In this document: positions 38,114-39,129 of the stretch, piece after piece
How the letters are laid out: each line of letters opens with the position of its first letter
Position numbering within the stretch: the stretch's first letter is position 1
Source of the DNA: Shigella phage sb4
Length of the DNA stretch: 64,000 bases
Sequence record: PQ666542
Reading direction: 5' to 3' (one strand)
Made by a program: the position numbers and the translations under genes
Notes under the pieces: model-generated
Database searches by the model: none
The model's input: the letters and a program-made list of their open reading frames with translations, nothing else
Told to the model about the DNA's origin: nothing

Positions 38114-39129
38114 TGTGTTGCCTCTACATATAACTGATTTGCATATTGAATAAGTGCTTCGCGATCAGAATCAGTGATGTCTGGAATTGCATTAATGTAT
38201 TCTTCCATCAACGTCTGAAGAGATTGAACTTCAACTTCTTCACTATCATCTGACTCGACAGAGTTATCAATCTTTGACACAACTCGTAATGAATGCACAA
38301 CTTTTTCTAGTTCAGATTCGAACTTCGTTAGATTTTTGTCTACTTCGGTTACTATAACACGTACTGATAGATTTGTAAAATCTTTAAAGTCAATTTTCCC
38401 CTTAAATGGATACTGAATTCGACGGTGCCAGGTGGTGTTGTTTGGAATAAATTCCATTCGTTCTGTTTCTGTATCAAACATCCAGAACCCACGAGGGTCA
38501 TTCTCGTCACCTGCAGTTAGTGTCCATGGTGTCCCAATATATCTGACGTTAGCAGCCTCAGAGATAGTATGGAAGTGACCAGACCACACCTCGTTATAAG
38601 TCTTAAGGAAATCAGGTTCAAGACCGTGAGATTTCATTCCTTTATAAAAATAAAATCCATTCAGTTCCCAGTGACCAACACAAAAAGAAGCAGATGAAGT
38701 TTTGATGTGTTCAAGAATTTCACCAGTATTTTCTTCACACATCCAAGGAATTAAATCAATCAAACATCCGTCAAAATCTACTGTAGTAGGCTTATCATAT
38801 ACTTTAACATTAGGATATTTAGCCAAAAGCTCAGTAGAAGCATTTGGAGTTAAAGTATTTTTAAAGTGCATATCATGGTTTCCTACAACAGTATGTAGGG
38901 TAATACCAGCATCATCAAGCATTTGAACTATTTCACGAGCGAACTCCATAGTTTAATGCGTGATTGCTTTTCGCACATCAAAAATATCTCCGTATTGAAT
39001 CCATGTAGTAATTCCATTTTTCTTAGAATATTCTATTGCTTGTTTAATTCCATCCAACTGAATGGATTGAACCCACTCATCATCGGCTTTAACACCTAAA
39101 TGCCAATCACCTAAATTTAAAATTTTCAT
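38110..39129 (-). CDS. 47: recombination endonuclease subunit gp47 (Mre11/SbcD-like); in-frame TAA at 38953-38955
   Basis: 340 codons = T4 gp47 339 aa; N-terminus MKILNLGDWHLG. Confidence 0.85.

Follow-up and report, generated by a model that had tools for sequence, protein, structure and literature searches.

The gene for the recombination nuclease subunit gp47 contains an in-frame TAA codon in the 64-kb stretch of DNA analysed here (hereafter the window), which raises the question whether this stop has a biological meaning or originates from the sequence record itself. The window comprises the first 64 kb of a T4-like genome (Tequatrovirus, pSs-1 group) with nearly all genes on the minus strand and in T4 order. 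In INPHARED, the best matches of a 25-kb query taken from it showed identities of 97.6% for Shigella phage sb2 and 97.0% for pSs-1, and over gene 47 the identity to sb2, pSs-1 and Sfk20 was 98.4-98.7%. These three genomes show the same gene order as the window at nearly equal coordinates, but their gene 47 is intact.

Structure of the interrupted gene and identity of its product

Read on the minus strand, the frame of gene 47 starts with ATG at 39129-39127 (MKILNLGDWHLG...DVRKAITH), runs into TAA at 38955-38953, continues with TMEFAREIVQ... and ends with TGA at 38112-38110. The sequence-only reading had described an in-frame TAA in a gp47 recombination nuclease gene, and both its coordinates and its peptide were found to be exact. 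In the ORF listing the gene appears as two ORFs in one shared frame with only TAA-ACT between them (Table 1). That these join into 340 codons, as had also been proposed, was borne out: the span comprises 1020 nt, corresponding to 340 codons including the terminator, and is colinear with T4 gp47 over 339 codons. The alignment with T4 gp47 that had been suggested as a check showed 95.3% amino-acid identity for the restored product over the full length of 339 aa with no gaps, and T4 Lys59 (AAA) was located opposite the TAA.

Table 1. Gene 47, its parts and other interrupted or altered sites, in window coordinates
Feature	Position	Strand	Remarks
Gene 47, Mre11/SbcD-like nuclease subunit of the gp46/gp47 complex	38110..39129	minus	interrupted at codon 59
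In-frame TAA, codon 59	38953..38955	minus	AAA (Lys) in relatives; single altered base is window 38955
Gene 47 N-terminal fragment ORF, 58 aa	38953..39129	minus	motif I GDWHLG (residues 7-12) and motif II GDIFD (47-51)
Gene 47 C-terminal fragment ORF, 279 aa, start is the ancestral internal Met61	38110..38949	minus	motifs III (GNHD), IV (GHWE region) and V (GHFH), C-terminal part
Gene 46, Rad50/SbcC-like partner	35984..37666	minus	intact ORF, 560 aa; order as in T4
Further in-frame stops (1/3)	1088-1090, 1768-1770, 3916-3918, 4469-4471, 7249-7251, 7999-8001, 8075-8077, 15134-15136, 16616-16618, 17888-17890, 19789-19791	minus	intact in relatives
Further in-frame stops (2/3)	20338-20340, 21152-21154, 27894-27896, 29207-29209, 29288-29290, 32043-32045, 33160-33162, 33454-33456, 33815-33817, 43547-43549, 46044-46046	minus	intact in relatives
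Further in-frame stops (3/3)	47102-47104, 47372-47374, 48044-48046, 48065-48067, 49183-49185, 52990-52992, 54261-54263, 54453-54455, 60895-60897, 62087-62089, 62153-62155	minus	intact in relatives
Window-private frameshifting indel	16847		T7 instead of T6; inside gene
Window-private frameshifting indel	18280-18284		CCCC instead of CC; inside gene
Window-private frameshifting indel	20048		GGGG instead of GGG; inside gene
Window-private frameshifting indel	45308		deleted C; inside gene
In-frame stops of sb2	21152-21157, 29207-29209, 31968-31970, 31986-31988, 49322-49324		given in window coordinates

With the stop masked, the product matched PHROG 100 (SbcD-like subunit) over residues 1-339 with E=3.8e-143. 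On the same profile, the 58-aa ORF corresponds to positions 29-86 and the 279-aa ORF to the adjacent positions 89-377. The stop-masked product also matched the Pfam family PF00149 Metallophos with 33.7 bits compared to a gathering cut-off of 21.5 bits, whereas neither fragment alone gave any Pfam match. The NCBIfam models for SbcD and Mre11 matched only below their cut-offs, and a PDB sequence search with the restored gp47 gave no match at E<=0.01. All five phosphoesterase motifs are identical to those of T4, with GHWE at residues 152-155, GNHD at 83-86, GHFH at 183-186 and the two N-terminal motifs as given in Table 1. In T4 Mre11, the five motifs coordinate two Mn2+ ions (bioRxiv 10.1101/2025.07.29.667502). 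According to the T4 gp47 alignment, the stop at codon 59 is located between motifs II and III. As written, gene 47 is a pseudogene, its reading frame being interrupted at this codon.

Compared to T4 gp47 (NP_049672), the window shares the length of 339 aa, the motifs and the neighbours 46, 46.1, 46.2, 47, 47.1 and a-gt. The differences comprise the TAA instead of AAA (Lys) at codon 59 and two further non-synonymous changes private to the window, Y248F (38387) and K179N (38593). Both are transversions and represent the same type of noise as the TAA. Gene 46, which is located a short distance downstream of gene 47 in the direction of transcription and matches the position of gene 46 in pSs-1 and T4, carries eight window-private non-synonymous changes.

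Codon 59 in related genomes

Codon 59 is AAA (Lys) in all five relatives aligned (sb2, pSs-1, Sfk20, KFS-EC3 and T4), each of which has an intact gene 47 CDS of 1020 nt at the same place. The stop results from a one-base change from AAA to TAA, the altered base being an A on the plus strand and a T on the coding strand. A truncation of homologues at this site, which the sequence-only reading had considered as possible counter-evidence, was not seen, since the close homologues are all annotated as intact CDSs. With the stop at its centre, a 45-nt query gave matches to 563 phage records, among which no identical one was seen and the best agreed at 44 of 45 positions. For a 29-mer holding the TAA, no exact match was found in the contig collections of IMG/VR (viral), JGI metagenomes and GTDB genomes, and an exact look-up of the product of the 279-aa ORF returned no record. 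The stop at codon 59 is thus a private feature of the window, and the interruption is not conserved in related genomes.

In-frame stops and frameshifts across the window

For a survey of stops, the 98 annotated CDSs of pSs-1 (1-50 kb) were compared to the window by tblastn, with the CDSs of sb3 being used for 50-64 kb. Between 1 and 50 kb, 26 genes were found to contain a total of 28 in-frame stops, and six more were located between 50 and 64 kb, giving about 34 in the window. They comprise 29 TAA, 5 TGA and no TAG; besides the one in gene 47, there are 33 further stops (28 TAA, 5 TGA, no TAG; Table 1). The 28 stops in 1-50 kb were mapped to the codon, and all of them lie one base from the sense codon of the relatives; at 43547-43549, sb2 and sb3 have TTA. 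Among these 28, TAA replaces E, K, Q, L, S and Y and TGA replaces G, R and W, adding up to nine amino acids. The genes hit include those for the DNA polymerase, both clamp-loader subunits (one of them twice), a topoisomerase II subunit, the dda helicase, nrdD, endonuclease VII, rIIA (twice), a dCTPase-like pyrophosphohydrolase, a glucosyltransferase, denB, modA and imm (twice). With 34 stops in 64 kb, about 0.54 stops are expected per gene of 1020 nt, which by our own arithmetic corresponds to a chance of about 40% for at least one stop.

Not only stops, but also frameshifts were observed. The tblastn matches of srd, modB, an mrh-like gene and nrdD were split because of private indels, which shift the frame of these four genes. 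The private coding indels mostly lengthen short runs of a base. Another window-private indel of 1-2 nt was located at 56447.

In T4, nonsense mutations in genes 43, 44 and 62 are lethal unless the host carries a suppressor. A phage with the genome as written could not replicate.

Private substitutions and selection

Four relatives (pSs-1, sb2, Sfk20 and sb3) were projected onto the window from 14,000 to 50,000, and a change was regarded as private when the four relatives agree and the window differs. In this region the window carries 409 private substitutions, including 226 transversions, while the corresponding transversion counts were 20 for pSs-1, 63 for sb2, 71 for Sfk20 and 42 for sb3. 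The window shows 3-10 times more private transversions than pSs-1, sb2 and Sfk20. The spectrum in the window is dominated by changes to A or T, accounting for 200 of the 226 transversions (89%), with T>A 60, C>A 50, A>T 46 and G>T 44 on the plus strand. Per base, private substitutions were about 1.7 times as frequent at G/C positions as at A/T positions. The bases flanking the private transversions were close to background frequencies, showing little context.

The coding private transversions were distributed over codon positions 1, 2 and 3 with counts of 72, 63 and 70 (chi-square p=0.72). They comprise 36 synonymous, 153 missense and 16 nonsense changes, compared to a random expectation of 28±5, 157±6 and 20±4, respectively, from 2000 simulations with the same spectrum at random coding sites. 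The private changes of the window show no trace of purifying selection. For polymorphisms common to the window and at least one relative, 1068 of 1397 were located at third positions and 1075 of 1397 were synonymous. Since the shared polymorphisms are biased towards synonymous changes and the private transversions resemble random ones, the window consists of two layers, namely ordinary divergence filtered by selection and about 0.6% of unselected noise. The TAA in gene 47 belongs to the latter.

Two particular features of the stops were considered and rejected. One is that stops were specifically enriched or planted, as might be suggested by one nonsense compared to two missense private changes in gene 47; the number of nonsense changes in the whole window is at or slightly below the random expectation. 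The other is the absence of TAG, which under a simple spectrum model has a P of about 0.002 (0 of 34), but is not upheld when stop trinucleotides created in any frame are counted (TAA 44, TGA 23 and TAG 8, i.e. 8 of 75). Since TAG is seldom created in any frame, its absence in frame is unremarkable, and for the 19 stops in 14-50 kb that are both private and in frame, the lack of any TAG has a P of about 0.1. The stop in gene 47 has no gene-specific meaning and is one of about 34 noise-like stops.

Origin of the noise

Since the window contains about 34 stops at scattered sites, together with unselected base changes numbering in the hundreds, the TAA in gene 47 is almost certainly a sequence error. 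With regard to its exact nature, it is highly probable that a single-base error from AAA to TAA in the sequence record, and not biology, accounts for it. The phage itself almost certainly encodes a normal gp47 of 339 aa. The TAA would represent a single instance of the unselected changes found throughout the window, namely substitutions, largely to A or T, and frameshifting indels, and these changes most likely arose by sequencing, consensus calling, assembly or other non-biological corruption. A technical cause is what we infer here from the sequence alone.

Similar signs were found in related records. In sb2 (PQ666540.1), the DNA polymerase gene contains TAA codons of its own and is annotated as two CDSs; in-frame stops derived from GAA (GAA to TAA) are present in this gene and in others. 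The in-frame TAA and TGA codons of sb2 comprise two in the DNA polymerase gene, two adjacent ones in the dCTPase-like gene, one in imm and one elsewhere. Two stops of the window, 21152-21154 and 29207-29209, are identical in sb2. These common stops suggest that the two records have a pipeline or data in common or that a systematic error recurs at particular sites; in principle, they could also be real shared mutations. Both sb2 and Sfk20 show the same signature of transversions to A or T at a lower intensity than the window, the load in 14-50 kb being 63 private transversions for sb2 compared to 226. For Sfk20, Illumina sequencing and assembly with CLC are described (PMC8481304), and a search of the literature on the sequencing of related Kolkata phages yielded no methods for sb1-sb3.

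The noise could also have been introduced in silico, by noise injection or generative sampling, instead of by laboratory sequencing. The substitutions are almost free of context, with neighbouring bases near background, the 89% of transversions to A or T resemble draws from the base composition of the genome, and neither the 279-aa ORF nor the 29-mer with the stop had an exact match in the collections searched. Nevertheless, this origin is considered unlikely, as most private coding indels lengthen short runs in the manner of instrument errors, and as the deposited sb2 and Sfk20 carry the same signature in a weaker form, including the two identical stops in sb2. The run-lengthening indels and the weaker signature in these records point to a real, error-rich deposit. 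For either origin, laboratory or in silico, the stop in gene 47 is an artefact.

Biological explanations

A genuine ochre mutation in gene 47 of a real stock, i.e. a defective or leaky mutant within an error-rich record, would equally appear as the clean single-base substitution from AAA to TAA. T4 gene 47 nonsense mutants exist as conditional-lethal laboratory mutants, providing a precedent, and the classical T4 amber and ochre mutants of genes 46 and 47 resemble the window in having a single-base nonsense codon in gene 47. However, the genome of such laboratory mutants is clean apart from one or a few defined mutations, in contrast to the about 34 stops and the frameshifts in the window, which affect essential genes and show no sign of selection. 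The TAA is indistinguishable from the approximately 33 other stops and more than 200 private missense changes that fit random noise, and it was found in no other record, neither among the 563 phage records nor in the three contig collections. Moreover, the major role in end resection during T4 recombination is attributed to gp46/gp47 (PMC3016280), and, judged from the position of the motifs, a cut between motifs II and III would leave neither fragment active alone. Nothing favours a single genuine ochre among the errors, and we regard it as improbable. An even less probable explanation is a functional split gene, in which translation stops at the TAA and re-initiates at the ATG 5 nt downstream (Met61), so that the 58-aa and 279-aa products reassemble to an active nuclease. 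This ATG is indeed located two codons past the stop (CAT TAA ACT ATG) and opens the 279-aa ORF, but Met61 is ancestral and also occurs in T4 and pSs-1 with their uninterrupted gene 47; therefore, the ATG is not an adaptation. No Shine-Dalgarno-like purine run is present in the 18 nt preceding ATG-61, GCAATCACGCATTAAACT, the metal-binding motifs I-II would be parted from III-V with neither piece scoring as Metallophos, and the arrangement occurs in none of the 563 records. The same logic would also be required for some 30 other broken genes, and a split gene is regarded as very unlikely.

A reassignment or efficient suppression of stop codons, by which this phage lineage would translate TAA and TGA as sense codons, could account for the many in-frame TAA and TGA codons in essential genes, two of them common to sb2. 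Nonetheless, the stops replace nine amino acids and not one, and they are accompanied by equally unselected missense changes and frameshifts, in a genome about 97% identical to Tequatroviruses with the standard code. No tRNA genes were found in the 64-kb window. In the tRNA cluster of sb2, the closest relative, no suppressor tRNA was found, all ten tRNAs having sense anticodons. Since many different amino acids are replaced and no suppressor tRNA was found, recoding does not explain the stops, and its probability is regarded as minimal. The same negligible probability is given to the assumption that a pSs-1-like lineage comprising the window and sb2 is able to propagate with dozens of genuine ochre and opal codons in its essential genes. 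If this were true, it would need an unknown suppression of termination in the phage or its Shigella host, with high efficiency and tolerance for different amino acids. A sequence error is thus the preferred explanation for the TAA in gene 47.

Consequences for the use of the record

With about 0.6% of its bases resembling unselected noise, the window is unsuited as a source of pseudogenes, split genes, unusual protein variants or cases of recoding, and caution is required. Other findings of in-frame stops or frameshifts in the window most likely have the same trivial cause. If the window is part of a public deposit, its record needs polishing, as does that of sb2 (PQ666540). Automated annotation of such records leads to split genes for DNA polymerase, nrdD and similar proteins, which contaminate protein databases.

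Gene neighbourhood of gene 47

Comparison of the window at 39126-39266 and 40509-41440 with T4 at 36444-38679 showed that gene 47.1, a membrane ORF of 46 aa, is present as in T4. The homing-endonuclease gene mobB, which follows a-gt in T4, is missing from the window as well as from pSs-1, and the small a-gt.x ORFs directly follow a-gt. This absence of mobB is ordinary mosaic variation among Tequatroviruses.
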